Source: a virus
Direction: 5' to 3' (one strand)
Length of the DNA: 64,000 nucleotides
IMG/VR virus record: IMGVR_UViG_3300034008_000032
The position numbers and the translations under genes were made by a program. Below the pieces are notes generated by a model. The model did not search any database, was not told where the DNA came from, and was given only the letters and a program-made list of their open reading frames with translations. Shown one piece after another: positions 1 through 64,000 of the stretch (position 1 is the stretch's first letter; the number at the start of each line of letters is the position of its first letter).

Positions 1-2
1 GC

Positions 3-206
3 GAAGGCGACCATTCTGTGTCCACGTACTGGCCGTGCGAGACGTGGGCGCTGACTGTTGCAGTGTCCACGCTGCCGGGTGTCATGGCGGACTGCTGGGA
101 GGAAGGCTTCGCCAAGGCTGGCCGGCTCATCCTGGGGTTGGACGTGGGCACGTGGCCGCCGTCCCCTAACCCGTACCGGGCAGCGGTGGATGGCGGGACG
201 CTGTGA
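3..206 (+). CDS. hypothetical protein, 5'-truncated at window edge
   Basis: Frame is open to the edge; TGA overlaps the next GTG (GTGA). Confidence 0.45.
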   Translation, partial: EGDHSVSTYWPCETWALTVAVSTLPGVMADCWEEGFAKAGRLILGLDVGTWPPSPNPYRAAVDGGTL

Positions 207-364
207 CGCCCGGCGAGTACATGGCTGCGTGGTGGGCGGAAGCGCATGCCCATCCGCGGCTGCTGGTGTTGGTGCTGGTGGGTGTCCGGGCTGTGGCCCG
301 TGAGGTCCGCTACTGGCTGGGTCGGCCCATTGACGCCGGAGATGTGGACAGCCCCACACCCTGA
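203..364 (+). CDS. small hypothetical protein (53 aa, hydrophobic middle)
   Basis: Hand-translated MTPGEYMAAWWAEAHAHPRLLVLVLVGVRAV...; GTGA overlap with the previous gene; below the ORF-track cutoff. Confidence 0.5.
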   Translation: MTPGEYMAAWWAEAHAHPRLLVLVLVGVRAVAREVRYWLGRPIDAGDVDSPTP

Positions 365-431
365 CGTGGTGTGGGGCTGCGGCGAGCCTGCCGGCCACGC
401 ACCCATCGTGGCATGCGGGGCGGTCTGGTGG

Positions 432-527
432 CTACTTGCCGAGGTGGACCACTGACGCCTTCTGCGCGGCGGCTAGGCGGCGGTTCAGGTCTGCCAGGGC
501 TTTGCGCATCTCGGGGGTCATGTACAT
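432..527 (-). CDS. 31-aa peptide MYMTPEMRKALADLNRRLAAAQKASVVHLGK
   Basis: GAAAGG Shine-Dalgarno 6 nt before the ATG; directly downstream of the minus-strand promoter at 603-568. Confidence 0.55.
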   Translation of the reverse strand: MYMTPEMRKALADLNRRLAAAQKASVVHLGK

Positions 528-567
528 GGGCTGCCTTTCGGTGGGGGGCTGGGGTGGTCGTGCTGAC

Positions 568-603
568 GTACCAATAATGGCATGCACGGATGGGTGTGGT
601 CAA
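568..603 (-). promoter_or_regulatory. promoter/operator element (minus strand)
   Basis: TTGACC-acacccatccgtgca-TGC-CATTAT-TGGTAC; same layout as the other copies and close to the 52635 copy. Confidence 0.75.
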
Positions 604-638
604 CGGGGAAATTGCCGGAAATTGTTCTGTGTCAGGGG

Positions 639-674
639 TTGCAGTCGCTGACCAACACATGCCAGAATAGGTAC
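639..674 (+). promoter_or_regulatory. leaderless promoter/operator element
   Basis: TTGCAG-N15-TGC-CAGAAT-AGGTAC, then ATG at 675. Confidence 0.8.
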
Positions 675-1211
675 ATGGACACCACGACCGGCGCACAGAC
701 GCCCACCCAGAAGATCACCGACGCGCAGATGCGTGCCCTGCACGCCATGGTGCAGAAGAACGACCCCGGCCACAACGGCTGGGTCGAGACCCCCAACAGG
801 GGTGTGCTGAACCGGCTGGTAAAGGCAGGCCTCTTGCGCGAGCGCGCCTTCCATGAGCGAGGCCCGTTGTACCGGGTGACTGACGCCGGCCGGGCGGCGC
901 ACGACGCGGTGTACACCGCGGACCGGCTGGCCGCCGAGGCGCAGGCGCGGTCGCGGGAGGCCAAGGCCGCCCGCGACGCAGCGCAGGCGCGGCGCGACGA
1001 CATGGACACCGCAGCGGAACTGCGCACCGAGGACATGGCGGCGGTGCGGGACATGCTGGGTGACGCAGCCCCCTGGTGGACGAAGGGCGGGGCCAAGCCG
1101 CACGACGACTACAGCGGCATCAGCGGCGGCGATTCGGTCGGCCGTATCACCGCCACCGAACTGCGGCGCTACCTCGAGGCTGCGCTGCGGAACGCCGGGG
1201 TGCAGGCATGA
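675..1211 (+). CDS. hypothetical protein, possible N-terminal winged helix
   Basis: Start placed at ATG 675 by the promoter element; ITDAQMRALHAM...VLNRLVKAGLL resembles a wHTH. Confidence 0.7.
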   Translation: MDTTTGAQTPTQKITDAQMRALHAMVQKNDPGHNGWVETPNRGVLNRLVKAGLLRERAFHERGPLYRVTDAGRAAHDAVYTADRLAAEAQARSREAKAARDAAQARRDDMDTAAELRTEDMAAVRDMLGDAAPWWTKGGAKPHDDYSGISGGDSVGRITATELRRYLEAALRNAGVQA

Positions 1212-1387
1212 ACCGGGACTGGACCATGAACACCGGCGAGTGCTGGTGCTATCGCACCTGCCGGGCGTGCAGCCACAGCGGCACCTGGCATGTGCACCCC
1301 GGCGAGCGTTGCCCCGTTCACCCTGACGCGCCGGGCGACTGGTCCGCGGCCGAGCGCGCCGCAGCGTTGTTGGCGGTGAAGGCGTGA
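1208..1387 (+). CDS. small Cys/His-rich hypothetical protein
   Basis: ATGA overlap; CWC..CRAC..H.H...CPVH. Confidence 0.6.
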   Translation: MNRDWTMNTGECWCYRTCRACSHSGTWHVHPGERCPVHPDAPGDWSAAERAAALLAVKA

Positions 1388-1608
1388 GCGCCCGCACCCT
1401 GACGTACCCGGAGCAGCAGGCGTACTGGCTGCTGCGGGCGGCCGGCCCGCAGGCTGCGTCTGAGGTAGCCACCCGCATGGGGTGGCCGATGGGTCCCACC
1501 CTGCGCATCCTGCTGGGGCTGCGCATAGCCGGGCTGGTGCAGGTGGCTGTGCTGCCCACCGCATCCCTGTGGTGGCTGACCCCGCCAGTCCCCGACGAGG
1601 AGGTGTGA
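1384..1608 (+). CDS. winged helix-turn-helix protein
   Basis: ASEVATRMGWPMGPTLRILLGLRIAGLV pattern; GTGA overlaps at both ends. Confidence 0.6.
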   Translation: MSARTLTYPEQQAYWLLRAAGPQAASEVATRMGWPMGPTLRILLGLRIAGLVQVAVLPTASLWWLTPPVPDEEV

Positions 1609-2054
1609 CCGTGGACGCTATGGATCCGGCCGTGCTGGAGGCTATTCGGCGCCGGTACATCCACGCGGTGGTGCCGTACACCGGCAGCGGCGCCACGGAC
1701 AGGTGGCTGAACACTGCGGACCGTGACCGTGGCCAACTACTGCTCGAGGTAGACCGGCTGCGGGCGCTGCTAGACGGTGCGCCGACGCTGACCCTGGAGT
1801 ACCGTGCCGTGTACTCGTTCCCTCCGTCGTACCTGGGCCCCACACCAGACCGCTACAGCCTGGCGCAGGCAACGCCGGACCGGCTGCCGCGCTGCCCGCG
1901 GTCCGAGGAGAACTGGGGGTTCACGTCCGGGGTGCAGTCCCGGGTGGTGGGCGCTTGGGGTCCGCAGTGCACCGGCCGCTGCGAGACCGCCGTGGTGTCC
2001 GACCGGTTCGTCCGGCGCACCGATCCTGACTGCCCACTACACAAGGAGGTTTGA
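1605..2054 (+). CDS. hypothetical protein
   Basis: GAGGAGG SD and GTGA overlap; C-terminal Cys motifs. Confidence 0.6.
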   Translation: MTVDAMDPAVLEAIRRRYIHAVVPYTGSGATDRWLNTADRDRGQLLLEVDRLRALLDGAPTLTLEYRAVYSFPPSYLGPTPDRYSLAQATPDRLPRCPRSEENWGFTSGVQSRVVGAWGPQCTGRCETAVVSDRFVRRTDPDCPLHKEV

Positions 2055-2056
2055 CC

Positions 2057-2293
2057 ATGGGCACCGAGCCTGTGACGCTGGACCGCGTCGAGGAAATCCG
2101 CGAACGCTGGTCCGTGCAGGAGAGCGCACCGGGTGTGGCGCCGTCCCCCACCGAGGCGCAGGACTACCAGGACGTGCACGAACTGCTGGCCATGCTGGAC
2201 TGGGCGGTGGCCCAACTGGCTGAGGTCGAGGGGGACCTGGAAGTCCGCAACGACGAAGTGGCTGCGCTGCGTGTGCAGGCAGGTGTGGGTTGA
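2057..2293 (+). CDS. hypothetical coiled-coil protein
   Basis: AAGGAGG SD; ORF track. Confidence 0.65.
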   Translation: MGTEPVTLDRVEEIRERWSVQESAPGVAPSPTEAQDYQDVHELLAMLDWAVAQLAEVEGDLEVRNDEVAALRVQAGVG

Positions 2294-2502
2294 TGGCGTT
2301 CGCGGTGGTGTTGGCGGTGTGCACGTTGCTGCTGGGCGGCGGCACCGTGTGGTGGCTGGGCCGGCGCGCCAACCAGCAGATTGAGGCGAAGGCGCGTGAG
2401 CGTTTCGACGCCCTGGTGCGGGAGGCGTACCTGGACGCGGCGCCGTCGCAGGAGGCGCTGGACGCGGCCGCTTGCGCGAACCTGGAGAAGACGGCGTGGT
2501 AG
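2293..2502 (+). CDS. small membrane protein
   Basis: N-terminal hydrophobic helix; TGATG coupling. Confidence 0.65.
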   Translation: MAFAVVLAVCTLLLGGGTVWWLGRRANQQIEAKARERFDALVREAYLDAAPSQEALDAAACANLEKTAW

Positions 2503-2884: not shown

Positions 2885-2897
2885 CGGCACGCCCGTA

Positions 2898-4122: not shown

Positions 4123-4157
4123 CCAACCTGACCACCCCAACCCCAACCGGAGGAACT

Positions 4158-7845: not shown

Positions 7846-8063
7846 CCAGGCCCCGCGACGAGCGGCGCCTGCACTCGGTGGTGCTGGTGCTGGCTGTAGG
7901 CCACGTGCTGCTGGCGTCCCTCGCGTTCATAGTGGACCGAGACCGCTACGTGTGGCCGGTGCTGCGCGAGGTGTACCCGTGGGTGTTCGTGGCTGCGTAC
8001 GCCTGGTCGGCACGCGCCAGCAGCAAGGGGGTTGTGGACCCACCTACTCGTGTGCCACAATAG
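7842..8063 (+). CDS. small membrane protein
   Basis: Two hydrophobic segments; GTGA overlap. Confidence 0.55.
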   Translation: MTRPRDERRLHSVVLVLAVGHVLLASLAFIVDRDRYVWPVLREVYPWVFVAAYAWSARASSKGVVDPPTRVPQ

Positions 8064-8067
8064 GTAC
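8032..8067 (+). promoter_or_regulatory. leaderless promoter/operator element
   Basis: TTGTGG-N15-TGC-CACAAT-AGGTAC-ATG(8068). Confidence 0.8.
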
Positions 8068-8481
8068 ATGAACGCATACACCGAGCAGGTCACCATCGGC
8101 ACCCCGCTGCGCGCTCGCACCGAAGAGTTCTACACCGGCATCAAGCGCGGCGACATTGTCTGGGTCATCGCGCACCGCGACGGCGACGGTCTACCGGACC
8201 GGGTCGAGGTCTGCGGCGACAACGACCAGGCCAGCCTGTGCACCAGCCTGGCCGACTTCGAAGAGGTTGCCCGTGACACCCTGACGCACCGCCAGTGGCA
8301 GGCAGGCTCCCGGGTCATGGCGTCGTTGGCCAAGTCGTACCTGGAGCGCGCGTACGCGGCAGCCAACCACCAGTACCAGCCGTCCGACACCGAAGCTCTG
8401 GCATGGCTGCACAAGGCGGCGGACCTGAGGCTGCTGTCCCATCGCCTACACGTGCAGGGCGGCGATGCTGGCCGCTGGTGA
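8068..8481 (+). CDS. hypothetical protein (leaderless, moron-like)
   Basis: Has its own promoter and a downstream terminator. Confidence 0.75.
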   Translation: MNAYTEQVTIGTPLRARTEEFYTGIKRGDIVWVIAHRDGDGLPDRVEVCGDNDQASLCTSLADFEEVARDTLTHRQWQAGSRVMASLAKSYLERAYAAANHQYQPSDTEALAWLHKAADLRLLSHRLHVQGGDAGRW

Positions 8482-8949: not shown

Positions 8950-10563
8950 ATGGCGCTGGACCTGCAGCAGAAGCCCCTCATGGGGCACACGGTGCCGCGC
9001 ATATTCACACCGCCGTTGCGGGACGTAGACGACCCCGCCCACCCCGAGTACACGCACGGGTGGGCGTGCATCTGGTTCGCGGAGCATGTGCTGGGGCTGA
9101 CCCTGGACCCGTGGCAGAAGTGGCTGCTGCGGCACGCCCTCGAGGTCCGCCCTGACGGCTCGTTCCGCTTCCGCAACGTGGTGGTTCTGGTGGCCCGCCA
9201 GAACGGCAAGTCCACCCTGTCGCAGGTGCTGGCCCTCTACTTCCTGTACGCGCTGGGCACCCGGCTGGTGCTGGGCACAGCGCAAGACCTGGACACCGCC
9301 ACCGAGGTGTGGCAGGGCGCCGTGGACATGGTGATGGAGGAGGACGAGGACGAGTCCCCTGTCCGTCCCGAGTTGCGGGCGATGGTGGACCGCATCGTCA
9401 TGGTGAATGGGCAGAAGTCCCTGAACCTGATCACGAAGGCCCGCTACAAGGTGAAGGCGGCCAGCCGCCGCAGCGGGCGCGGTCTGTCCGGGGACCTGGT
9501 GATTTTGGACGAGTTGCGGGAGCATCAGACCTTCGATGCGTGGTCTGCCCTGACGGGCACCACCAACGCCCGCCCCAACGCGCAAATTTGGGCGCTGTCC
9601 AACGCCGGCGACGTCACCAGTGTGGTGCTGCGTTTCCTGCGCATGACCGCCCACGCTGCACTGGGGGACCCGGACGGCATCTGTGCTGCGGCGGACCCGG
9701 CCGCGCTGCTGAAGGCCGCCAACGAATCGGTGGACCTGGACGGCGACGACCTGGACGTCGAGGACGTGCCCGATGACACCCTGGGGCTGTTTGAGTGGTC
9801 AGCGCCGCCTGGCTGCCATGTGAAGGACCGCAAGGGGTGGGCGTACGCCAACCCCAGCCTGGGCTACGGCCGGGTGACCGAGCGCACCCTGCAGTCCAAG
9901 TCCAACGAGCCCGAGTGGGTGTGGCGCACAGAGGGGTTGTGTCAGTGGGCGGACGGCACCCTGGACGGCTTCTTTCCTGCCGGCGCCTGGGATGAGTGCC
10001 GGGACCGTGACAGCCGGCTGGCCGATGACAGCCCGGTGGTGCTGACCCTGGACGTGTCCTGGGACCGCAGCGCAGCCCATGTGGGCATTGTGGGGTTGCG
10101 CGACGACGGGCTGACGCACGTGGAGGTGTTGGCGTCATCTGGGCGGGGTGGGCTGCCCATGGGTACGGACTGGGTGTTGCCGTGGCTGCAGTCCCCCGAG
10201 CGCAGCCAGCGGGTGCGGACCGCTGGGATAGTGGCGCAGACCCGCGGTGCGCCGGTGTCGTCCATGGTGGAGGGGTTGGAGGCTGCAGGGCTGCGGGTCA
10301 TTCCGTGGGGCGGCGGTGACCTGGGCGCAGCAACCGGCTTCCTGTACGACCTGGTGCGGGAGGGGAAGGTGCGGCACCGCGGGCAGCCAGTGCTGGACGT
10401 GGCCGCAGCCACAGCCCTACCGAAGCCGATGGGTGACTCGTATGTGGTGGACCGCAAGAAGTCCCCGAATGACGCAGCCCCACTGGTGGGCATGGTGGGC
10501 GGCTGCTGGTTCCTGAGCGCCGAAGTGGCATCTGCGTATGATGTCCTTGACAGCGTGATGTGA
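8950..10563 (+). CDS. terL: terminase large subunit
   Basis: Walker A VARQNGKS, Walker B LVILDELREH, C-terminal nuclease LDVSWDRS. Confidence 0.95.
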   Translation: MALDLQQKPLMGHTVPRIFTPPLRDVDDPAHPEYTHGWACIWFAEHVLGLTLDPWQKWLLRHALEVRPDGSFRFRNVVVLVARQNGKSTLSQVLALYFLYALGTRLVLGTAQDLDTATEVWQGAVDMVMEEDEDESPVRPELRAMVDRIVMVNGQKSLNLITKARYKVKAASRRSGRGLSGDLVILDELREHQTFDAWSALTGTTNARPNAQIWALSNAGDVTSVVLRFLRMTAHAALGDPDGICAAADPAALLKAANESVDLDGDDLDVEDVPDDTLGLFEWSAPPGCHVKDRKGWAYANPSLGYGRVTERTLQSKSNEPEWVWRTEGLCQWADGTLDGFFPAGAWDECRDRDSRLADDSPVVLTLDVSWDRSAAHVGIVGLRDDGLTHVEVLASSGRGGLPMGTDWVLPWLQSPERSQRVRTAGIVAQTRGAPVSSMVEGLEAAGLRVIPWGGGDLGAATGFLYDLVREGKVRHRGQPVLDVAAATALPKPMGDSYVVDRKKSPNDAAPLVGMVGGCWFLSAEVASAYDVLDSVM

Positions 10564-11121: not shown

Positions 11122-12366
11122 GTGGGCTGGTTCCGTGAGGCTATCGGTCTGCCCAGCAAGGAGGAGGCGCGGACGCTGACCGCCGAGACGCTGTGGGGTG
11201 ACGCGCTGCCGTTCAACTACGTCTCCGCCACAGGTGCTGCGCCGGTGTCCCCCACCAAGGCGTTAACCCTGGCCCCCGTCTACTCGTCTGTGCGGCTGCT
11301 GGCCGACAACATCTCCACCCTGCCTGTGCAGTCATACCGCAAGGTGGGCGACGAGCGCATCCCCAGCAACAAACTGCCGGCCATGTTCGACACCATGAAG
11401 GAGGCGGGGCTGCTGGTGCCGTGGCTGTACGCCGGCATCACCAGCCTGGCCCTGCGCGGCAACGCCTACGGCTACATCATCGACCGCGACGGCTGGGGGT
11501 ATCCCACCCTCACCGATTGGCTGGACCCGTCCGTGGTGGCACCCGACGACAGGCCCGGCGCCCGCGGCGGCTGGCTGGTGAAGGGCCGGCCGGTGCCGCG
11601 CGCCGACATCGTCCACATTGTCCGCTTCGCGCAGGCAGGCAGCCGGCTGGGGTTGTCACCCATCGGGGCGTTCGCTGCAACGATGGGCGTTGCCTTGTCC
11701 GCCAAGGACTACACCCGGACATGGTTCGACAACGGCGGCTTCCCGCCCGGGTCGTTCAAGAACACCGCCAAGACTGTGACCACCACCGAGGCTGAGGTCA
11801 TCAGTAACCGGCTGACCGCAGCCATTCGCGGGCGGCGCCCCATCGTGTACGGCTCGGACTGGGACTACCAGGCCATCACCGTGCCCGAAAAGGAGGCACA
11901 GTTCCTGGCCACCATGAAGGCGACGGCCAGCGAAATCGCCGCCATTTACGGCATCCCCCCGGAGATGGTGGGCGGCGAGTCGGGCAGCAGCATGACGTAC
12001 GCCAACGTGGAGCAGAATCAGATCAACTTCGTGATGCTGACACTGCGCCCTTGGCTGGTCATCCTCGAGGCCGCATTCTCAGCCCTCATCCCGGCCGGGC
12101 AGTATATTAAGTTCAACCCGGATGCGCTAGTGCGGGCAGACCTCAAGACGCGGTGGGAAGTTAACCAAATCCGCCTCACTGTGGGTGCTGCCAGTGTTAA
12201 CGAAATTCGGGCGCAGGAAGATGAGCAGCCGATACCGGGCGGGGACGTGTACGCCAAGCCCGCAGCGGCTGCGCCAGCAGCACCACCCGCAGCACCCACC
12301 AGCCAGCCGGACACCACGCAGGACACACCAGCCGGCGAGCCAACGCCGTTACGGAGGATCTCATGA
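11122..12366 (+). CDS. portal protein (HK97 type)
   Basis: VYSSVRLLADNISTLP, ALRGNAY, GLSPI, IAAIYGIPP, TYANVEQ motifs. Confidence 0.95.
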   Translation: MGWFREAIGLPSKEEARTLTAETLWGDALPFNYVSATGAAPVSPTKALTLAPVYSSVRLLADNISTLPVQSYRKVGDERIPSNKLPAMFDTMKEAGLLVPWLYAGITSLALRGNAYGYIIDRDGWGYPTLTDWLDPSVVAPDDRPGARGGWLVKGRPVPRADIVHIVRFAQAGSRLGLSPIGAFAATMGVALSAKDYTRTWFDNGGFPPGSFKNTAKTVTTTEAEVISNRLTAAIRGRRPIVYGSDWDYQAITVPEKEAQFLATMKATASEIAAIYGIPPEMVGGESGSSMTYANVEQNQINFVMLTLRPWLVILEAAFSALIPAGQYIKFNPDALVRADLKTRWEVNQIRLTVGAASVNEIRAQEDEQPIPGGDVYAKPAAAAPAAPPAAPTSQPDTTQDTPAGEPTPLRRIS

Positions 12367-13049
12367 CTGACAACACCGAGCGGCGCTTCACTGCCAGCCA
12401 GGTGGAGGTGCGGGCCGCTGACGCTGACAAGCGCAGCATCGGCGGGTACGCAGCCAAGTTCCACAAGCCCAGCCAGAACCTGGGCGGCTTCGTGGAGTTC
12501 ATCGACGCGAAGGCGTTCAACCGTTCCCGCGGTGACGGCTGGCCGGACGTGATGGCCCGCTACAACCACGACGACATGTGGCTGCTGGGGACCACCAGCG
12601 CACGCACCCTGCGGTTGGAGACCGACGACGTCGGGCTGGTGTACACCGTCGACACCCCCCGCAGCCGCGCGGACGTGTACGAGTTGGTGCAGCGCGGCGA
12701 CGTCACCAAGTCCTCGTTCGCCTTCCGGGTCATCGGTGCGGACGGCGAGGAGTGGGGGCTGTCTGACCAGAACTTCCCGCAGCGCACCCTGCTGTCTGTG
12801 CAACTGGTGGATGTGGCGCCGGTCAACACCCCCGCCTACAAGGACACCAGCACCGCCATCCGCAGCCTGGCGCAGAAGTTCAACGCACCAGTGGACGAGG
12901 TGCGGGCCCTGTCCGAGTCAGGGGACCTGACGAAGTTCTTCGCCCGCTCGGACGGTGGCGCGGGGAAGCCCGGCTACCACAAGCGGACGTTCGGACCGGC
13001 CGCGCTTATGGCGCTGCAGTCCAAGACGCGGGACCCACACGCCAAGTAG
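12363..13049 (+). CDS. prohead maturation protease (HK97 family)
   Basis: IGGYAAKF, ARYNHDD, SSFAF, VDVAPVNTPAY. Confidence 0.95.
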   Translation: MTDNTERRFTASQVEVRAADADKRSIGGYAAKFHKPSQNLGGFVEFIDAKAFNRSRGDGWPDVMARYNHDDMWLLGTTSARTLRLETDDVGLVYTVDTPRSRADVYELVQRGDVTKSSFAFRVIGADGEEWGLSDQNFPQRTLLSVQLVDVAPVNTPAYKDTSTAIRSLAQKFNAPVDEVRALSESGDLTKFFARSDGGAGKPGYHKRTFGPAALMALQSKTRDPHAK

Positions 13050-13071
13050 CACTGCTGCTACGCTTTCACCA

Positions 13072-13200
13072 CTAGACCACCGGACTGGCCGGCTCGGGCG
13101 ACACCCGCCCGGCCAGTCCCACTAGACACCAGCCAGGTACACCCTGCAGGCTCGGGCGCAACCCGCTCTGCGACACCCCCCATTCCCATTTATGGAAGGT
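13072..13200 (+). promoter_or_regulatory. structured leader upstream of the capsid gene
   Basis: GGACTGGCCGG...CCGGCCAGTCC stem (13082-13119); two GGCTCGGGCGNNACCCGC units; two CACTAGAC. Confidence 0.5.
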
Positions 13201-13209
13201 GGCGCGCTC

Positions 13210-14484
13210 ATGAGCGACGTCGTAGCAAAGCTCCGGGACCGGCGCACCCGTGTGGTCGAAGAGGCCCGCAGGCTGGCCGAGATCGCCGCGGAGGCGAACC
13301 GCAACTTCTCCGGCGAGGAGGAGGCGCAGTGGCAGACCTTGAACTCTGAGATCGACGCGCTGGACAAGCGCATCGGTGCCATGGTGGAGGGCGAGACCCG
13401 CGCGAAGAAGACCGAGGACGCCATGCGCGACCTCGAGGGCAAGCCGCGCGTGGACGGACGCTCGGACCGTGACGACCAGCGCAGCGGCGGTGACCGTGAC
13501 GGCGGCGCAGGTGACGCTGGTATGTCGGACTACGAGGTGCAACTCCGGGGCATGCTGACCGGCGCCTCCGGTGCACCGCGGGCCATCGACGTGAAGCCGA
13601 AGGGCAAGGTGGACTTCCGCACCCTGTCCAAGTTGACGGCGCCGGCCGGCGGCAACACCATCCCCACCACGTTCTACGACCAGTTGATCCAGCACATGAT
13701 CGAGACGTCCTCGGTGCTGCAGGCTGGGGTGCGGGTGCTGAACACCACCGGCGGGGAGACCATCCAGATCCCGAAGACCACCACGCACAGCACTGCTGGG
13801 CTGGTGGCTGAGGCTGCCGCCATCGGGGTGTCCGACCCGGCGTTCGCGCAGGCCAGCCTGTCCGCCTACAAGTACGGCGTGATGGTGCAGGTGTCCCGCG
13901 AGTTGGTGGACGACTCCGCGGTGGACCTCATGGGCTACCTGGCCGAGGAGACGGGCCGGGCGCTGGGGAACGCGTTCGGCGCGCACCTCGTCACGGGCAC
14001 CGGCTCCAGCCAGCCGCGCGGCATCACCCTGGACAGCACGCTGGGTGTGACCGCCACCGGCGGCGGCAGCCCCACGGGTGACAACCTCATCGACCTGTAC
14101 TACTCCCTCATCGCGCCGTACCGCAACGCCCCCTCGGCTGCGTGGATGATGAAGGACACGTCGGTGGGTGCCCTGCGCAAGGTGAAGGACACCACCGGCC
14201 AGTACATCTGGCAGCAGGGGCTGGTGGCCGGTGCGCCGGACATGATCCTCGGCAAGCCGGTGCTGACGGACCCGTTCATGCCCGCAGTGGGTGTGGGCGC
14301 CAAGTCGGTGCTGTTCGGGGACTTCTCCCGGTACTTCGTGCGGCTGGCCGGCGGCATCCGCTTCGAGCGGTCCGACGAGTACGCCTTCAACACGGACCTC
14401 GTGACCTTCCGTGCGCTGCTGCGCGGTGACGGTGCGCTGATCGACACGTCCGGCGCTGTCAAGCACATCCTGGGCGCTGCCTAA
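13210..14484 (+). CDS. major capsid protein (HK97 fold, with N-terminal delta domain)
   Basis: Coiled-coil N-terminus; GGNTIPTTF, YKYGVMVQVSRELVDDS, ILGKPV, FGDFSRY. Confidence 0.95.
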   Translation: MSDVVAKLRDRRTRVVEEARRLAEIAAEANRNFSGEEEAQWQTLNSEIDALDKRIGAMVEGETRAKKTEDAMRDLEGKPRVDGRSDRDDQRSGGDRDGGAGDAGMSDYEVQLRGMLTGASGAPRAIDVKPKGKVDFRTLSKLTAPAGGNTIPTTFYDQLIQHMIETSSVLQAGVRVLNTTGGETIQIPKTTTHSTAGLVAEAAAIGVSDPAFAQASLSAYKYGVMVQVSRELVDDSAVDLMGYLAEETGRALGNAFGAHLVTGTGSSQPRGITLDSTLGVTATGGGSPTGDNLIDLYYSLIAPYRNAPSAAWMMKDTSVGALRKVKDTTGQYIWQQGLVAGAPDMILGKPVLTDPFMPAVGVGAKSVLFGDFSRYFVRLAGGIRFERSDEYAFNTDLVTFRALLRGDGALIDTSGAVKHILGAA

Positions 14485-19715: not shown

Positions 19716-20273
19716 TCACTTGCGCTGACGCGACTTGCGGCATCGTGCGTTACTGCATGCCCGGCATGCCCGGGACGTCGACCCGTTTGGGTGGACCCTC
19801 ACCACGGTGTTGGCTGCATCAAACGGGTGCCCGTACTTGCAGTGCGTTCTACGCGCATTCACTGCTGAAGGTCCGCTCGATGAACGCAGGACGTTGCTGC
19901 GCTGGCTGGACCCGCGCAGGTGGTCAGGGTTGCTGCACAGGGGGGTGTCGCACTCATAGTGGTCAACTACCTCGCCCGGCAATAGTGGACGTACATGGTG
20001 CTCGTATGACCAGCGGTGCACCTGGGTGCGCTTCCCGTCCACATGGAAGCGCGCATAGCCCTTGTTGCTCACGTCCGAGCCTGTCCACAGCCAGCAGCCA
20101 GTGTCAGGGTCAATGTGTATGTGGGCGCGATATCGCTCCTCGACTGTCCCGCCCGTGGCGCCGGTGTGCGCTGTGTCACCGTGCTTCTTCCAGCGGAGGT
20201 AATGCATGCCGCACATGCCCTGCCCGCCGCCGCTGGGCTTCTGACAGTCAGGCACCTTGCATGGACTCCGCAT
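19716..20273 (-). CDS. HNH homing endonuclease
   Basis: CWLWTG...GYARF...VHRWSY...VVDH.C...CSNPDHL...N; THCKYGH C-terminus. Confidence 0.9.
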   Translation of the reverse strand: MRSPCKVPDCQKPSGGGQGMCGMHYLRWKKHGDTAHTGATGGTVEERYRAHIHIDPDTGCWLWTGSDVSNKGYARFHVDGKRTQVHRWSYEHHVRPLLPGEVVDHYECDTPLCSNPDHLRGSSQRSNVLRSSSGPSAVNARRTHCKYGHPFDAANTVVRVHPNGSTSRACRACSNARCRKSRQRK

Positions 20274-20301
20274 GCGGAAACTTTACCGCACGGGAGGCAT
20301 T

Positions 20302-23300
20302 GTGCTCGACTTAGGTGAGTTGTCTGCCCGGGTGGTGGTGGACGACAGCGGCATGCCTGCTGGGCTGTCACGTGCGCACCGCCGCTTCGGTCTATTCGGG
20401 CGTCAGGTCACCACAGAGGCCGGCAGGTCAGGCACCGCAGCCGGTGCTGCGCTAGGAACGCAGTTCAGCAGCGCAGCCCGCACCCATGTGGGTCGGGCGG
20501 CGTCCGGCATCAGCGGCATGCTGGGTGGGGCACTGGGCACCATCGGCCGTTTTGGCGGGGCTGGTGTGGCTGCGCTGGGCGCTGTGGGCGCGGCCGGACT
20601 GGGCATGGGTGTGCAGGTGGCGGCCGGCAACGAGACCGCCCAGATTGCGTTTACCACCATGCTGGGGTCCGGAGAGAAGGCTGAGGCGTTTCTGACCCGG
20701 CTGAAGGACTTTGCGGCCACTACCCCCTTTGAGTTCCCTGAGTTGCAGACCGCGGCCAGCAGCCTCATCTCAGCCGGCATTGAGGCCGACAAGGTCATTC
20801 CCATCATGACCAACCTGGGCAATGTGACCAGCGGCATGGGCACTGGGGCCGAGGGTGTGAAGCGCGCCACCGTGGCGCTGCAGCAGATGAACGCCGCCGG
20901 CAAGATCACAGGCGAGGACCTGAACCAGTTGAGGGACGCCGGCATCCCGGTGTATGACCTGCTGGCGAAGGCCACCGGCAAGTCCAAGAAGGAAATCGCG
21001 GCGCTGGCACAGGCAGGCAAACTAGGCAAGACTGAGTTGGACGCCATGATGCAGGCGTTGGCGGGGCCGGCCGCGCAGGCTGGGTTGGAGCGCTTCGACG
21101 GGCTGATGGCGAAGCAGTCAGCGTCACTGGCTGGTATGTGGTCCACCGTCAAGGACACGCTGGGGCAGGGGCTGGCCACCGCCATCGCCCCCCTCATTCC
21201 CATGCTGAAAGACGGGCTGGGGGGTGCGTCAGCGTTCCTGGGCAGGCAGTTGGAGAAACTGCCCGGCATTCTGACCGGCATCACGGACGGCGCTATGGCG
21301 TTCGGGCGGTCCGATGCGTGGGGGACCATCAAGTCCGTAGCGGTCGGTGTGTTCGGGGCGGTCCGTGACGGCGCCGCTGCGGTGCCTGGGCTGCTGCGGC
21401 AGGGCCAGGATGCCCTGGACCGCTTCGGGCGGTCTGAGACGTGGGCGGCCATCAAGGAGGCCGGTGGCGGCATTGGGCGGGTGCTGCGCGATGATGTGCT
21501 GCCGTTCCTGCTGTGGTTGAAGGACACCGGGGTGCCTGCGGTGGCTGCGGTGGTCGAGTGGATGGCCCGCTGGCGTGGCGTGCTGACTCCTGTGGGTGTG
21601 GCGCTGGGCATCTTCGGGGTGGGGCTGGGCGCCACCGCCATCCAGATGCAAATCATGGCGGCCGGCGGCTTCCTGAAGTGGCTGGGGACCCTGGCCGCCA
21701 CCACTCGCATAGGCGCGGCTGCGCAGTGGGCGCTGAACGTGGCCATGACCGCGAACCCCATCGGGCTGGTGGTCATCGCCATAGCCGCACTGGTGGGCGG
21801 CCTCATCTACGCCTACAAGCACAGCGAGCGCTTCCGCGAGATCGTCAACGCAGTGTTCGGCTGGCTGGGCCGGGAGGTGCCGGCAGCATTCGGCCGGGTC
21901 CGTGACGCCATAGTGGGTGACTGGAACAAGATCACCGGCAAATTCCGGGACGCCAAGGACTGGGTGGTGGGCACCTGGAAGAAGCACTGGGATGTGGTGC
22001 TGGCTGTCCTGCTGGGCCCCATTGGGTTGGGCGTGCTGGCGGTGTCCCGCAACTGGGACAAGATCACCGGCCAATTCTCGCGGTCCAAGGACTGGGTGGT
22101 GGGTGCCTGGCGCAAGGACTGGGCTGGTGTGGGGCCCGCCATTGGTGGGGCGGTGGGGCGCGGCAAGGACGCGGTGGTGTCTGACTGGAACGACATCACC
22201 CGCAAGTTCACGTCCGCGAAGAACTGGACGGGCAGCACGTGGCGTAAGGGCTGGTCTGCTGTGTCCGGCTGGATGTCGTCTGCGGTCACGTCCGGGCAGC
22301 GGGCGTCGGGGCGTGCCATGGACGCTGTGCAGGCGGACCTGGGCGCGCTGCGTAAGTGGGCGGGCAGCACGTGGCGGCGCGGCTGGTCAGCGATCTCCGG
22401 CTGGATGTCGAGTTCGGTTAGGGCCGGCAGGGACGCAGCGAACCGCAGCCTGGACAACGCACAGTCTGACCTGGGGGCGCTGCGCGCGTGGGCTGGTGGG
22501 ACGTGGCGGCGCGGCTGGTCCGCTATCCGCAGATGGATGTCGGACCCGGTGGGCAGCGCCCGTGACGCGGTGACCAACATTTTGGGCACCAACGACAAGA
22601 CGGGGCTGCGGGGCCGGCTGTCCGGCTTCATTTCCGCCGCCGGCCGCATCTGGGACGGGCTGCGCGCCAAAATGAAGGCGCCCATCACAGCCGTCATCGG
22701 CATCGTCAACAGCGGCCTCATCGGTGCCTACAACTGGGTGATCGACAAACTGAAAATCGGTGGGCGGCTGTCACCCATCTCCATCAAAGGCTTCAAGGGC
22801 GGTGGGCCCACCGGCAGTGGCATGTCCGATGATGAGGTGGCGGGGGTCACCCACGCACACGAGCATGTGTGGACTGCGGACGAGGTGCGGAAGGCTGGCG
22901 GGCACCGGCCCATTGAGGCGCTGCGGCGGGCTGTCCGTGCAGGGCTGCGGCTGCCCGGCTACTTCCTGGGCGGCGGCGTCAACCCGCTGCCCGGTGCGTC
23001 GTGGTCGCAGCACAAATCCGGGTATGGCTTCGCGCGGTGGGCTGGTGACGGCAACAAGCCCGGCGACTTCGGGGCGCTGGTGAAGGCGTACAAGGATGGG
23101 GTGGTGGCCAGCGTCCGCACCCTGACCGGCTCGTACGGCAAGCACGTGTGGATCAACCACGGCAGGGAGAGGTCCCTGTACGCGCACCTGTCGTCGTTCC
23201 TGGTGAAGGCCAGGGACCGGGTGCGCGGCGGCGACAACGTGGGCAGGGTGGGGTCCACCGGCAACAGCACCGGGCCCCACCTGCACTTCGAACTGCGGGG

Positions 23301-24249
23301 CGGCAGCGGGCCACTGTCTGCGGTGGGTGACGCCATAAAGGGTGCGGTGGGCGCCCTGACTGAGCGGGTGAAGGCGTCATGGCTGGGTAAGTTCGCTAAC
23401 CCTGCGGACCTGCTGCGGGACCGTGCATCGAAGGCTATGGCGCAGGCCGGGCTGGGTGGGCTGGGCGCCAGCGGCTGGGGTGGTGTGGTGCGGCGCGTGC
23501 CGGGGCTGCTGCTGGATAAGGCGGTGGACAAGGCTAAGGGGTTCGCAGAAAACCTGTGGACCGACATCAGGTCTGTGGTGTCGAAGTCGTCGGCTGGCTC
23601 CACCCGAGGGCTGGGGCCGCGCGCAAGGGCGGCGCGGGCGTACACCACAGACCGTTGGGGCATCACCAACATCGGCGGCTTCTCGTACCGCAACATCGCC
23701 GGCACCCGCACCCTCTCCAAGCACGCCATCGGCAAGGCCATTGACATCATGACCAGCAATGTGGCGTTGGGAAACGAAATCGCCGGCTACTTTGCAGGGT
23801 CCGGCCGCGGGAAGTTCGGTGTGGACAACGTGATTTGGCGGCGCCGCATCCACAACGCCGGCCGTGGCGGCTGGGGCAGTTACCGCGGGGTCAACCCGCA
23901 CTATGACCACGTGCACGTCGACTTCTACAAGAGGGGCGGCGCGGTCCGCCAACGCGGCTACGCAGCCGGCACACAGTCCGCCGCGCCCGGGTTTGCCTGG
24001 ACCGGCGAGAAGGGTGCTGAGTTGGTGCTGAACCCGCAGTTGCGCAGGTACAGCGGCGGCGAGCGGGTGCTGACAGGCAGCCAGACGCGGCGGGCCATGA
24101 CCGGGCAGGGCGGTGCGGGCGGCACTGACAGCCGGCCGTACATCGGCAGCCTGACGCTGCAGTCATCCGGTAACTTGCACAGGGACCTGGATGAGGTCAT
24201 GTTCCGGGTCCGCAGCACCACCAGAGGGGGCGTGTATGCGCAGCGGTGA
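20302..24249 (+). CDS. tape measure protein with M23-like and M15-like peptidoglycan hydrolase domains
   Basis: GGGAGG SD; tape_meas N-terminal FAATTPFE; Trp-rich repeats; YAHL...GSTGNSTGPHLHF; SKHAIGKAIDI...HYDHVHV. Confidence 0.92.
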   Translation: MLDLGELSARVVVDDSGMPAGLSRAHRRFGLFGRQVTTEAGRSGTAAGAALGTQFSSAARTHVGRAASGISGMLGGALGTIGRFGGAGVAALGAVGAAGLGMGVQVAAGNETAQIAFTTMLGSGEKAEAFLTRLKDFAATTPFEFPELQTAASSLISAGIEADKVIPIMTNLGNVTSGMGTGAEGVKRATVALQQMNAAGKITGEDLNQLRDAGIPVYDLLAKATGKSKKEIAALAQAGKLGKTELDAMMQALAGPAAQAGLERFDGLMAKQSASLAGMWSTVKDTLGQGLATAIAPLIPMLKDGLGGASAFLGRQLEKLPGILTGITDGAMAFGRSDAWGTIKSVAVGVFGAVRDGAAAVPGLLRQGQDALDRFGRSETWAAIKEAGGGIGRVLRDDVLPFLLWLKDTGVPAVAAVVEWMARWRGVLTPVGVALGIFGVGLGATAIQMQIMAAGGFLKWLGTLAATTRIGAAAQWALNVAMTANPIGLVVIAIAALVGGLIYAYKHSERFREIVNAVFGWLGREVPAAFGRVRDAIVGDWNKITGKFRDAKDWVVGTWKKHWDVVLAVLLGPIGLGVLAVSRNWDKITGQFSRSKDWVVGAWRKDWAGVGPAIGGAVGRGKDAVVSDWNDITRKFTSAKNWTGSTWRKGWSAVSGWMSSAVTSGQRASGRAMDAVQADLGALRKWAGSTWRRGWSAISGWMSSSVRAGRDAANRSLDNAQSDLGALRAWAGGTWRRGWSAIRRWMSDPVGSARDAVTNILGTNDKTGLRGRLSGFISAAGRIWDGLRAKMKAPITAVIGIVNSGLIGAYNWVIDKLKIGGRLSPISIKGFKGGGPTGSGMSDDEVAGVTHAHEHVWTADEVRKAGGHRPIEALRRAVRAGLRLPGYFLGGGVNPLPGASWSQHKSGYGFARWAGDGNKPGDFGALVKAYKDGVVASVRTLTGSYGKHVWINHGRERSLYAHLSSFLVKARDRVRGGDNVGRVGSTGNSTGPHLHFELRGGSGPLSAVGDAIKGAVGALTERVKASWLGKFANPADLLRDRASKAMAQAGLGGLGASGWGGVVRRVPGLLLDKAVDKAKGFAENLWTDIRSVVSKSSAGSTRGLGPRARAARAYTTDRWGITNIGGFSYRNIAGTRTLSKHAIGKAIDIMTSNVALGNEIAGYFAGSGRGKFGVDNVIWRRRIHNAGRGGWGSYRGVNPHYDHVHVDFYKRGGAVRQRGYAAGTQSAAPGFAWTGEKGAELVLNPQLRRYSGGERVLTGSQTRRAMTGQGGAGGTDSRPYIGSLTLQSSGNLHRDLDEVMFRVRSTTRGGVYAQR

Positions 24250-46208: not shown

Positions 46209-46408
46209 AGCGCTGGCTGGCAAGACTGCTGGAGCGGCGCGCAACGTCTCTCCTGCCGCAGAGCCTGCGCGTCCGGCTGGCCGCCATTGGCGACGTGGAC
46301 GACTGCTACGAGTGCGACCGGCTGACCGTGTGGGACGGCGAGGTCTGCACCGGCTGCGGGCGCACCTGGGGCTACGACGCGGACTGGCCGTACGAGGTCA
46401 AGCCGTGA
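46205..46408 (+). CDS. small zinc-ribbon protein
   Basis: CYEC...CTGCG. Confidence 0.65.
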   Translation: MKRWLARLLERRATSLLPQSLRVRLAAIGDVDDCYECDRLTVWDGEVCTGCGRTWGYDADWPYEVKP

Positions 46409-47481
46409 GCGGCTTCGTGGACCCGCTGGCCCCCGAGGCGCTGTTCGAGTCGGAGGCGGCGCCGGCGGTCACCCTGGCCGACCGGTTCGGGGTGCCGCCG
46501 TTCAGCGTGTTGGACCGGCGGGCTGGGCTGTGGCAGGAGCGGAAGCGGGCGTGGCTGTCCCTGGGCATCAAGTCCGAGTTGGGGCGGGACACGAACCTGC
46601 TGAAGAGGTCCGGCTTCACCGATGACTACTTCAACGGCGCCGGCCAGTTCAAGCACAAGCGTGGCAGTGGCCCGCACCCGGGCGGCGGCGGTGGCGGTGC
46701 GTGGCTGGGTCAGAAGGCCGGCGGCGGCACCGCCTCCTATGACCCGAAGTGGGGCGGCGGGGACGGCGAGGCCGGGGATGTGGAGACGGTAGGCACGTCC
46801 ATCTTTGACCCGGTGCTGGCCGAGTTGGCGGTCCGCTGGTTCAGCAAGGTGGGCTGGCAGGTGCTGGACCCGTTCGCCGGCGGCAGTGTCCGTGGCATTG
46901 TGTCCGGGGTGCTGGGCCGGGACTACCTGGGTGTGGACCTGCGCGCCGATCAGGTGAACGCCAACTGGCAGCAGATCGGTCTGGTGCCGGACGGGCTACC
47001 CAAGCCGCGGTGGCTGGCTGGTGACAGCCTGCACGTGCTGCCAGCGCTGACCCACTTTGCTGCCGACCTGATCCTGACCTGCCCCCCGTACGCCGACCTG
47101 GAGGTGTACTCGGACGACCCGCGGGACCTGTCCACCATGGACTACGACATGTTCCTCGTGGTGCAGCAGGCCATCCTGGCGGAGGCCGTTGAGCACCTGC
47201 GACCAAACCGGTTCGTGGTGTGGGTGACCAGCGATGTGCGGGACAAGGCAAAGGTGGGCAGTCCGTACCGGGCGCTGGTGGCTGACACCATCCATGCCGC
47301 GCAGGACTGCGGGCTCGAGTTGTACAACGACCTGGTGATTCTGGACCCGGTGGGGTCTGGTGCTGTGCGCGCCGGCCGTCACTTCTCCAGCGCCCGCAAG
47401 GTCATCCGTATGCACCAGCATGCGCTGGTGTTCGTGAAGGGCGACCCGAAGGTCGCCACAGACGAGATGGGGACGGTGTGA
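46405..47481 (+). CDS. DNA methyltransferase (N4-C/N6-A type), copy 1
   Basis: VLDPFAGGSVRG (SAM binding) precedes TCPPY (catalytic). Confidence 0.88.
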   Translation: MSGFVDPLAPEALFESEAAPAVTLADRFGVPPFSVLDRRAGLWQERKRAWLSLGIKSELGRDTNLLKRSGFTDDYFNGAGQFKHKRGSGPHPGGGGGGAWLGQKAGGGTASYDPKWGGGDGEAGDVETVGTSIFDPVLAELAVRWFSKVGWQVLDPFAGGSVRGIVSGVLGRDYLGVDLRADQVNANWQQIGLVPDGLPKPRWLAGDSLHVLPALTHFAADLILTCPPYADLEVYSDDPRDLSTMDYDMFLVVQQAILAEAVEHLRPNRFVVWVTSDVRDKAKVGSPYRALVADTIHAAQDCGLELYNDLVILDPVGSGAVRAGRHFSSARKVIRMHQHALVFVKGDPKVATDEMGTV

Positions 47482-47711
47482 CCTGGGACCAAGGCGCCCC
47501 CGAGCCGCCACCCGAGGTGGTCTGCGTCACTGACTACAGCACACCAGATTGGGACCCGTGCGACCCAGCCAGTCCCCGCTGGGGGCGCACAACGGACGGG
47601 CACTGGAAGGGCTACAAGAACGGCTACAAGACCTACGTGGGGTGGGACGAACTGACCCGGCGCTGGGGGCCACTGACCGATACTGGACTACGACTGAAGG
47701 GCGCAGAATGA
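47478..47711 (+). CDS. hypothetical protein
   Basis: GTGA/ATGA overlaps; WDELTRRWGPLT. Confidence 0.65.
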   Translation: MTWDQGAPEPPPEVVCVTDYSTPDWDPCDPASPRWGRTTDGHWKGYKNGYKTYVGWDELTRRWGPLTDTGLRLKGAE

Positions 47712-48748
47712 CCACAGCAGAGGGCTGGGCAGAGCAGGGCGAGGACGCGGGACTGTTTGACTACGAGCGGCCCGCTGCGGTGTCCCTGGCAGACAAGTTC
47801 GGGGTGCCTCCCATGTCGGTGCTGGACCGCCGGGCAGGGGACTGGCAGGCCCGCAAGCGGCGGTGGCTGACCATGGGCATCGAGTCCGAGTTGGGGCGCG
47901 GAGGGGACCTGCTGTTCAACGCCGGCATCCCGGTGCCTGGGCAGCGGCCCGGCTACGACCCTGCGAAGGCGTCGGCGGTGGGCATCACCGCCCCCGGACG
48001 CGACGACTTCCTGGCCCGGCTGCTGCGCGGCGAGGAGAACAACTACAGCCCGCTGAAGGCTGCCGGGGTGTCGGTGTTCGACCCGGTGCTGTGCGAACTG
48101 GCGTACCGGTGGCACACCCTGGTGGGTGACGCTGTGCTGGACCCGTTCGCGGGCGGCTCGGTGCGCGGCATTGTGGCCAGCGTGCTGCAGCGCAACTACA
48201 CCGGCATAGACCTGCGCGGCGAGCAGGTGGCAGCCAACCGCACCCAAGCGCACCTGGGGACCAACAACCACTGGCCGGTGTGGATCGAGGGCGACAGTAC
48301 CGCCATGGACACCCTGCTGCACCCTGACGGGCGCTACGACATGCTACTCACCTGCCCGCCGTACGGCGACCTCGAGGTGTACAGCGACGACCCCCGGGAC
48401 CTGTCCACCATGGACCACCAGCAGTTCCTGGCGATGCAGCAGGTCATCATCTATCGGGCTGCGGAGCGGTTGCGTGAGCACCGGTTCGCGGTGTGGGTCA
48501 CCAGCGACATCCGCGACAAGAAGGGTGCGTACCGTGGGCTGGTCGCTGACACGATCGGCCAGTTCGAGTCGGCCGGTATGCGGTTCTGGAACGACGCTGT
48601 GCTGCTGGACCCGGTGGGCACCGCAGCCGTCCGCGCCGAACGCCCGTTCCGGGCCAGCCGCAAACTGACCCGCGTGCACCAGCACATGCTGGTGTTCCTG
48701 AAGGGTGACGCCAAGCAGGCGACCCAGCGCCTCGAGGGTGACGCATGA
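47708..48748 (+). CDS. DNA methyltransferase (N4-C/N6-A type), copy 2
   Basis: VLDPFAGGSVRG, TCPPYGDLEVYS; paralog of 46405-47481. Confidence 0.88.
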   Translation: MTTAEGWAEQGEDAGLFDYERPAAVSLADKFGVPPMSVLDRRAGDWQARKRRWLTMGIESELGRGGDLLFNAGIPVPGQRPGYDPAKASAVGITAPGRDDFLARLLRGEENNYSPLKAAGVSVFDPVLCELAYRWHTLVGDAVLDPFAGGSVRGIVASVLQRNYTGIDLRGEQVAANRTQAHLGTNNHWPVWIEGDSTAMDTLLHPDGRYDMLLTCPPYGDLEVYSDDPRDLSTMDHQQFLAMQQVIIYRAAERLREHRFAVWVTSDIRDKKGAYRGLVADTIGQFESAGMRFWNDAVLLDPVGTAAVRAERPFRASRKLTRVHQHMLVFLKGDAKQATQRLEGDA

Positions 48749-49574: not shown

Positions 49575-49982
49575 GTGCCAGTGAAAACTATACCAACATC
49601 GGCCACGCACCGTCCAGTGGAACGCCAGCCTGTCTCACACGCGCTGCGCTGGGCGACATTGTGCCGCTACAACTTCTCGTGCCGCTACTGTGGACTACCC
49701 GCCGGTGTGGTGGTGCTGCAGATCGAGCACGTCATCCCCGTGGCCCACGGCGGCACCAGTGACCCGTGGAACCTCGTTCCTGCCTGCGCCGAATGCAACC
49801 GAGGCAAGGGCGTCACGATGCCGCCGGCAGACCTGCTGCGGGCGGTCTGGGCTGAGTACATGGCGCACCCGGCACCGTACGTCCGGCAGTGCCTGGTCTG
49901 CCTCGAGCCGACCTTGTCTGACCCCGCCTGCCCGCCGCTGTGCGAGGACTGCTGCGGACGCATCATGGCGGTGCAGGCATGA
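49575..49982 (+). CDS. HNH endonuclease
   Basis: CRYCG...IEHVIPVAHGG...NLVPACAECNRGKG. Confidence 0.88.
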   Translation: MPVKTIPTSATHRPVERQPVSHALRWATLCRYNFSCRYCGLPAGVVVLQIEHVIPVAHGGTSDPWNLVPACAECNRGKGVTMPPADLLRAVWAEYMAHPAPYVRQCLVCLEPTLSDPACPPLCEDCCGRIMAVQA

Positions 49983-62621: not shown

Positions 62622-62898
62622 GTGGCCGCAGTACCAGCGGGAGACCTTCGAAAACCTCGACACCCACCTGGACAACTACGGCACACCCGTGCCTGACGGC
62701 GAGTATCAGGTGCAGGTGGTCAACCACGGCACCAGGCCCACACCCGGCGACGGGGTATGGTGGCAGCCGGTCCCGGCTAGAATCACGGGGCTGGCGGTTG
62801 GCCGGTACGACGCCTACACCCGCTGGGTGCGCGGCGACGGTCAGAAGGTCATCGACCATGTGGGAGAGCAAGGCTTCCCGTCCTTCGAGATCGTCTAA
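62614..62898 (+). CDS. hypothetical protein (possible fibre chaperone/adaptor)
   Basis: AGGAG SD; overlaps the fibre gene stop. Confidence 0.65.
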   Translation: MGRWPQYQRETFENLDTHLDNYGTPVPDGEYQVQVVNHGTRPTPGDGVWWQPVPARITGLAVGRYDAYTRWVRGDGQKVIDHVGEQGFPSFEIV

Positions 62899-62915
62899 TT
62901 CCCAAGGAGACCAAA

Positions 62916-64000
62916 GTGAGACCACCCCGCCTTGCCGCGCTGCTGACCGCAGCCGGCGTGACAGCAACAGCGATGCTCGCAGCAGCACTGCCAGCACAGG
63001 CAGCCCTGGCGCCGGTAACCAACGCCGGCGCCGCAGCCAGCGTCGGCTCGTGTGTGGCTGTACCCACCTACGACTCCACCCCCACCACCTCTGACTGCCC
63101 TAGCGGCTACGGCGGCATCGCGCTGAACACGTCTCGCAATGTGGCCGCGGTGTGGTGCGGCGCCGGCTGGGAATGCAGGAAGCAGAACTACGGCGGCGAC
63201 TACACATACTGGACCCCCGGCCCGAAGTGGCTGGACACCCCGGACTACACCCGCAAAATCTGGTCACGGCAGATAGCCGCACCTACACCGACGCCCACCC
63301 CGACACCGACGCAGGCACCTGACACCACCGTCACCACGTCCAACGTCACGTCAACCACGGTCACCGTCAACTGGACCGCTGTAGCCGGCGCCACCGGCTA
63401 CTACGTTGAGCGCGACGGTCAAGATTCCACCGGAGGGGGGCCCTGGGGCATCGAGGACCCGGCCACCGCACGCTCCCGGGTGTTCGACAAACTGATTCCG
63501 GGCGGCACCTACACCTTCTCGGTCACCCCGCGGCCCGGTGGCGTCAAGAAGAGCGTCACTGTCACCCTGCCGGGTGGCACCACCAGCCCGTCACCCACGG
63601 CCACTCCGTCCGAGACGACCAGCCCCACCCCGACGCCCACCACCACTGCGCCGGTGGACCCCACCGACTCCACCCCCGGCTGGCTGTCAGGTGCGGCGTC
63701 CCTGTACGCAGGCAACGGCACCTTCGGCACCTGGCGTGGGTCCCCCGTAGAGATTGGCGGCACCTGGCTGAACGACACCGCCGCCTACACCCTGCGGCCC
63801 GCCAGTGCATGCGGCGGCTGCAACGGCGAGTGGACCAACTTCGACGGGGCTATGGACATCGCGGTCAACCCGCCGTCCTTCCCGGGCTGGGCGGCCACCG
63901 CGGGCGGCGCGTCTGACCAGTTCTTCACAGACATGGCGAAGCAGATCAGCAGCGCACGCGCCGGTAAGGGCATCTCGTACGTCCGGCCGTGGCACGAGTG
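62916..64000 (+). CDS. secreted FN3 plus GH26-like glycoside hydrolase, 3'-truncated by the window
   Basis: AAGGAG SD; hand-translated open to the edge; signal peptide (AQA), PT linkers, FN3 (VTVNW...GYYVER...L.PG.TYTFSV), FGTWRGS...YVRPWHE. Confidence 0.75.
   Translation, partial: MRPPRLAALLTAAGVTATAMLAAALPAQAALAPVTNAGAAASVGSCVAVPTYDSTPTTSDCPSGYGGIALNTSRNVAAVWCGAGWECRKQNYGGDYTYWTPGPKWLDTPDYTRKIWSRQIAAPTPTPTPTPTQAPDTTVTTSNVTSTTVTVNWTAVAGATGYYVERDGQDSTGGGPWGIEDPATARSRVFDKLIPGGTYTFSVTPRPGGVKKSVTVTLPGGTTSPSPTATPSETTSPTPTPTTTAPVDPTDSTPGWLSGAASLYAGNGTFGTWRGSPVEIGGTWLNDTAAYTLRPASACGGCNGEWTNFDGAMDIAVNPPSFPGWAATAGGASDQFFTDMAKQISSARAGKGISYVRPWHE

Follow-up and report, generated by a model that had tools for sequence, protein, structure and literature searches.

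The DNA analysed here, 64,000 nucleotides of the IMG/VR virus record IMGVR_UViG_3300034008_000032 (hereafter the window), carries part of a tailed-phage genome, has a G+C content of 68% and has nearly all of its genes on the plus strand. Several metagenome assemblies from biocrusts contain contigs of 91,472-91,628 bp that encode proteins identical in sequence to the window's, and the full genome, which was rebuilt from overlapping metagenome loci, measures 91,480 bp and closes on itself. Since assemblies made independently for at least five biocrust samples show 100% identity wherever they overlap, the phage population is clonal or has spread very recently; the same identity makes variation within the population uninformative about the feature that concerns us here, the purge of the tetranucleotide AGCT. 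Besides the genes listed in Table 1, the window codes for a SNF2 helicase, an annealing protein, DnaB and a 1600-aa protein with an SGNH domain. No cultured phage gave a megablast match to the window DNA, no tRNAs were found in the phage genome, and the Pfam lists covering the genome, in which most genes are without any family, include no integrase family.

Table 1. Features of the window and the two AGCT sites that survive in it (a slash marks a codon boundary).
Feature	Position	Strand	Remarks
AGCT-purged phage DNA	1..64000	.	The window, ~70% of the 91,480-bp genome, which is purged throughout likewise
Surviving AGCT site 1, AAGCTC	8394..8397	.	Phase xxA/GCT (GAA GCT, Glu-Ala), ORF 8032-8481
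Large terminase (TerL)	8950-10563		
Portal, prohead protease and major capsid	11122..14484	+	Pfam Phage_portal, Phage_capsid; region compared site by site with AGCT-normal relatives
Portal (start)	11122		
HK97-type major capsid	13192-14484		
Surviving AGCT site 2, AAGCTC	13229..13232	.	Phase xAG/CTx (AAG CTC, Lys-Leu)
Tape measure	20257-24249		
ParB-like + N6/N4 amino-methyltransferase, copy 1	46405..47481 (longest ORF from 46054)	+	Pfam PF01555, phrog_498/12517, phrog_15396
ParB-like + N6/N4 amino-methyltransferase, copy 2	47708..48748 (longest ORF from 47549)	+	Weak matches to solved N4C/N6A methyltransferases
Small HNH endonuclease	49581..49982	+	One of four HNH genes in the genome; precomputed Pfam HNH, HNH_5

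No cognate pair of methylase and nuclease for AGCT was encountered among the phage genes. The sole methylases are the two ParB-fused amino-methyltransferases, whose matches to solved structures are weak and do not allow a specificity to be read from them; the first copy is not a C5-methylase of the M.AluI type. Furthermore, in the Pfam and PHROG family lists for the whole genome no phage gene matches a restriction-enzyme family or a C5-methylase, and we know of no Pfam model or NCBIfam accession for R.AluI or an AluI-like enzyme. The nucleases of the genome include HNH proteins of 228, 133 and 71 aa among the four HNH genes and, outside the window, a 667-aa protein that joins an FtsK/SpoIIIE-like region to a GIY-YIG nuclease domain (L010:10325-12328); directly downstream of the latter lies the gene for a 594-aa peptidoglycan hydrolase with M23 and NlpC/P60 domains (L010:12333-14117). 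The phage genes thus include no evident means of self-protection and no evident AGCT nuclease of the phage's own.

AGCT occurs twice in the window, where 188 copies are expected from mononucleotide composition and 187 from a second-order Markov model. The initial annotation had noticed just these two copies, at 8394 and 13229 and both as AAGCTC, and had put the compositional expectation very roughly at 150-200; its count was exact for the window. The 27 kb of the genome beyond the window contain no AGCT at all, giving 2 copies in 91,480 bp against 269-276 expected. As a codon-aware null, we shuffled synonymous codons 300 times within the 66 plus-strand CDS (46 kb), holding the protein sequences and the pooled codon usage fixed. 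This check, which the initial annotation had called for, yielded 113.2 +/- 6.5 AGCT, with 93 in the lowest shuffle, against the 2 observed (z = -17.2), an observed/expected (o/e) ratio nowhere near 1. The null errs on the conservative side, the codon usage that it preserves having itself been shaped by avoidance; over the whole genome, the codon-aware o/e of AGCT is 0.01.

Avoidance was also said to extend through every module, and this was borne out: each full 5-kb segment is separately depleted of AGCT (P ≤ 1.3e-5), and the compositionally atypical 1600-aa gene has 0 copies against 12.2 expected. The word is likewise missing from two minus-strand gene blocks beyond the window (0 versus 13.5 and 0 versus 12.1 expected) and from intergenic DNA (0 versus 20 expected, P = 2e-9), which argues that the DNA, and not its coding, is under constraint. 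The proposal that AGCT had been avoided through synonymous codon choice understates the purge, which takes in intergenic DNA as well.

Within genes, AGCT can fall in three codon phases, all of which have been emptied: one site is left in 51 opportunities for xAG/CTx, one in 163 for xxA/GCT and none in 76 for AGC/T. After codons ending in AG, leucine is written TTG 49 times, TTA once, CTC once and never CTG, as compared with 978 CTG and 91 TTG elsewhere. The codons preceding leucine have shifted too, with GAA making up 33% of its pair before Leu (12% elsewhere), CAA 41% (10% elsewhere) and AAA 79% (7% elsewhere), and the six example positions given in the initial annotation are all real GAG/AAG-TTG or AAA-CTG pairs. 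Ahead of a T-initial codon, serine is never AGC (0/76 versus 236/707 elsewhere) and shows no enrichment of AGT (2/76), TCN codons being used in their place, while alanine is GCT in just 1 of 163 cases after an NNA codon, as against 234 of 1737 elsewhere. The purge of ~270 sites has thus been paid for with rare codons (TTG, GAA, CAA, AAA) used systematically, with switches between Ser codon families and with some amino-acid changes.

Whether AGCT or a longer site such as AGCTG/CAGCT is depleted was a question raised by the initial annotation, and the counts settle it in favour of AGCT. All the flanking contexts tested are empty or nearly so, with AGCTA, AGCTC, AGCTG and their complements (including AAGCT) at 0-2 copies against 85-183 expected and with the 6-bp palindromes CAGCTG and GAGCTC absent, and the twelve one-mismatch neighbours of AGCT stand at ordinary levels (68-637 copies; 268-637 for those matched in G+C). 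Longer or degenerate targets (CAGCTG, GAGCTC, AAGCTT, RGCY) were rejected on these counts, together with the abundance of GGCT, AGCC and GGCC. Under the codon-aware null for the whole genome, AGCT is the sole near-zero word among all 4-, 5- and 6-mers, the remaining strongly depleted words having o/e ratios from 0.25 to about 0.9. Since neither its neighbours nor other 4-6-mers are comparably depleted, the target of the purge is AGCT itself, a 4-bp palindrome.

Relatives of the phage do not share this depletion. In the closest of them (L101/L116), the capsid protein is 88% identical, the capsid gene is 84% identical at the nucleotide level and identity across a 9.4-kb alignment is 75%. L116 has 66 AGCT against 46 expected; of the 38 that fall within the alignment, not one is kept as AGCT in the phage, as compared with 253 of 598 positions (42%) for 4-mers of the same composition (Fisher p = 3e-9); AGTT stands in place of AGCT at 11 of the 38, AACT at 5, and other changes are seen at 22. 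Similarly, in the portal, protease and capsid genes, 0 of 14 AGCT positions of L101 are kept versus 113 of 222 for same-composition 4-mers (p = 1e-4), and 11 of the 14 replacements in these genes are synonymous. At 12682, 13682 and 13901, two relatives both have AGCT within the same amino-acid pair that the phage encodes with a synonymous AGTT, and at 12802 the phage has AACT, which is synonymous against L101. Relatives at 38-63% TerL identity also have a normal AGCT content, and across 72 loci with a related TerL in named genomes the AGCT o/e has its median at 1.33 and does not fall below 0.48. The purge is therefore not a matter of inherited composition, given the values for L116 and for these 72 loci. 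It is derived and lineage-specific, because a relative with 88% capsid identity has normal AGCT, and it arose within the lineage of this phage. The 'long-term' selection of the initial annotation needs to be qualified to that extent, since the purge is not ancient in the family.

Some further observations were made on the relatives and on another viral contig. The genome is mosaic with respect to L116 (8950-14484), in that the 84% of the capsid gene compares with 77% nucleotide identity in portal-protease and 65-76% in TerL and the tail genes; the best TerL protein match found anywhere is 65%. A parallel purge of TGCA in L015/L104 (one phage; ENA ERZ27293403, IMG/VR 3300025875) was considered and rejected, since TGC as a whole is depleted there, strand-asymmetrically, and TGCA is scarce as a consequence (TGC 46 versus 232 expected, GCA 148 versus 272 expected). 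The 5,896-bp contig L111 (IMGVR_UViG_3300027976_000933; 59% GC), a distant capsid relative at 37% identity, has 0 AGCT against 21 expected and is possibly an independent AGCT-free phage. A 13.6-kb viral contig of 43% GC (L100, IMGVR_UViG_3300010352_001860) has no ACGT and no CTAG, each against ~51 expected.

The two sites that survive in the window have the common context AAGCTCNGG. The first precedes the small terminase gene by ~160 nt and is found in all independent assemblies. The second lies about 20-40 nt inside the major capsid gene, at its very start, and seems to be an ancestral site that has so far escaped removal, because the homologous position in a relative (L015) is AGCT too, again within a Lys-Leu pair. 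Both sites could be removed by synonymous change.

Second among the purged words comes another palindrome, GATC. Its purge is weaker and leaves 105 copies, where a Markov model expects 189 and mononucleotide composition 269, with a codon-aware o/e of 0.42 for the genome; 8 of 51 GATC positions of L116 are retained in the phage (p = 1.6e-4), and in typical actinobacterial relatives GATC reaches 2-3x expectation. Other depleted words, namely GAGC/GCTC, CGAC, CTCC/GGAG and CAGGCC (codon-aware o/e 0.25-0.7), were put down to codon-pair or Shine-Dalgarno-like biases of the ordinary sort. Also very scarce in the genome are several palindromes of 6 bp (TCGCGA 0, AGGCCT 2, CGATCG 2, GGATCC 4 and CCTAGG 4 copies, where the expectation for each is ~31 by composition and 4-8 by a Markov model), and CGCG and GGCC have been lost to an above-average degree relative to L116, with 33 of 147 and 23 of 86 retained.

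A search of five actinobacterial genomes returned no DNA match to the phage, and TerL has no close relative among genome contigs. The 72 TerL loci are nearly all prophages of Actinomycetes (Kribbella, Nocardioides, Terrabacter, Micrococcaceae, Nocardia, Microbacterium), and since the same holds for almost every TerL or capsid relative in a named genome, an actinomycete is a plausible host. The tetranucleotide signature weakly favours loci of the Kribbella type.

It is well supported by these data that selection acts on the DNA word AGCT itself, and that neither a longer site nor a habit of codon use nor biased mutation accounts for the purge. In our assessment, the purge probably reflects strong selection against this double-stranded word by a host-encoded, AGCT-specific nuclease, most simply a type IIP enzyme of the AluI kind. 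An AGCT-type host restriction or defence system was also what the initial annotation proposed; selection against the word is upheld by the codon-aware shuffles, by the emptying of all codon phases and by the intergenic DNA, and from there we infer both a restriction enzyme of the host as the agent and an actinomycete as the host. The pattern would suit a homodimeric type II enzyme, because a 4-bp palindrome such as AGCT is its typical target and GATC is a palindrome as well. On this reading, each AGCT in unmethylated incoming DNA would carry a chance of lethal cleavage, and each site lost would raise the chance of successful infection, such that synonymous changes, occasional amino-acid changes and intergenic substitutions may over time have disposed of all but two sites. 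For the purge to become near-total, the phage would have to move often between hosts that have the restriction-modification (R-M) system and hosts that lack it, because phage emerging from an R-M host would be methylated and protected. Points against host restriction are that no candidate yielded an AGCT-specific enzyme or methylase, that two synonymously removable sites persist, and that AGCT has been lost without R-M in pandoraviruses, which implies that such a loss is not always due to classical restriction.

That the agent is something other than a classical type II enzyme of the host, either a mechanism related to the one behind the AGCT loss of pandoraviruses and other viruses or a lone phage nuclease that cuts AGCT in host DNA, we regard as unlikely; if it were so, a phage-bacterium pair on a cultivable scale would make the AGCT puzzle experimentally tractable. 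The first form of this idea, in which AGCT is recognised by a non-classical defence or interference system, encoded by the host or acting on DNA processing, as proposed for clade-A pandoraviruses, is quite unlikely in itself. Pandoraviruses do purge the same word without an R-M explanation (10.1101/712018), and no AGCT enzyme came to light here, but type II systems are common in bacterial hosts, and AGCT-specific ones are documented (PMC12707154; motifs in PMC8919816). Host restriction is also the simpler reading and fits every observation, including the joint purge of a second palindrome, GATC.

The second form, to which we give a lower probability again, holds that one of the four HNH proteins, or the FtsK-like/GIY-YIG fusion, is an AGCT nuclease that degrades host DNA, and that the phage, its own genome being free of sites, needs no methylase. 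HNH and GIY-YIG folds occur in some type II enzymes, and a genome without a C5-methylase that encodes several nucleases of no assigned specificity would suit such a scheme; many phages, however, have HNH genes for homing or packaging nucleases, and the 228-aa HNH protein has only the catalytic core in common with the HNH protein of a relative. Moreover, the phage genes are without a match to any restriction-enzyme family, nothing ties the HNH and GIY-YIG genes to AGCT, and the partial purge of GATC would require a second explanation.

Mutational erosion, in which AG(m5C)T is methylated and deamination of m5C turns it into AGTT or AACT with no selection at all, is highly improbable and was largely refuted by the codon phases. 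AGTT and AACT are indeed the commonest replacements at the L116 positions, but in the xAG/CTx phase they are the only synonymous single steps in any case, and the xxA/GCT phase, where both products are non-synonymous, is emptied equally. Nor is AGT, the product expected in the AGC/T phase, favoured over TCN codons, and more than half of the L116 positions carry other changes in a phage that encodes no C5-methylase. Just as hard to credit is selection at the RNA level by a sequence-specific endoribonuclease (for instance the toxin of a toxin-antitoxin system) cutting AGCU in phage transcripts, for although nearly the whole genome is probably transcribed and strand asymmetry cannot tell DNA from RNA targeting when the word is a palindrome, an RNA target needs no palindrome, palindromes make up only 16 of the 256 tetramers, the secondary purge has likewise fallen on a palindrome, and intergenic DNA and both gene orientations are equally purged.

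The avoidance of restriction sites by phages is a strategy known for decades, and the purge described here is an extreme case of it. What is particular is its completeness for a 4-bp word across 91 kb, together with direct evidence that it originated after the split from a relative that is still close; the phage thereby offers a quantified example of how fully a 4-bp restriction target can be erased within the divergence that separates it from a relative with an 88% identical capsid protein. Its AGCT-free, GATC-poor fingerprint may also serve as a clue in linking phage to host, since the host or host range should include strains that restrict and methylate AGCT. The AluI system (AGCT, AG(m5C)T) is among the closest known parallels. 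AluI comes from Arthrobacter luteus, now Cellulosimicrobium cellulans, so that the purged word is the word recognised by an enzyme of actinobacterial source and the phage's relatives are actinobacterial prophages; the phage differs in having no C5-methylase like M.AluI. Both M.AluI and R.AluI act on AGCT (PMC12707154), and AGCT methylation motifs are on record (PMC8919816).

Near-complete elimination of type II sites has been reported for about one-tenth of phage genomes, mostly of non-temperate phages (Rusinov et al. 2018, PMC6286503), and site purging has been reviewed (PMC12707154). The present case resembles these in that a short palindromic word of type II kind is almost gone, beyond what composition and codon usage account for, from a dsDNA phage that may be non-temperate; it differs in that the step from site to enzyme is here an indirect one and in the extremity of the effect, with 2 of about 270 sites left for a 4-bp word in 91 kb. 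Viruses that carry their own R-M system and have purged its site, as is seen with chloroviruses or giant viruses, offer a further parallel, from which the phage departs in having no recognisable cognate pair. Literature searches returned no account of AGCT avoidance specifically in actinobacteriophages.

The same word has, however, been lost from other viruses. One of them is the halovirus HRTV-7, in whose genome AGCT does not occur, for which the authors of that study hold host R-M responsible (PMC7230728); both it and the phage are tailed viruses from which AGCT has been removed and in which GATC is depleted too. HRTV-7, however, is an archaeal myovirus with a complete loss of CTAG and GATC, whereas the phage described here is an actinophage-like siphovirus with a partial loss of GATC and no special loss of CTAG. 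In clade-A pandoraviruses, from which AGCT has also been purged, an R-M explanation was tested experimentally and rejected (Poirot et al. 2019, bioRxiv 10.1101/712018). The likeness to the phage extends to the word itself, the non-directed substitutions, the restriction to a lineage, the GC-rich genome and the equal treatment of coding and non-coding DNA. The phage adds a prokaryotic case to the viruses without AGCT, and, whereas pandoraviruses are giant viruses of eukaryotes, it is its prokaryotic host that makes R-M the default explanation here.
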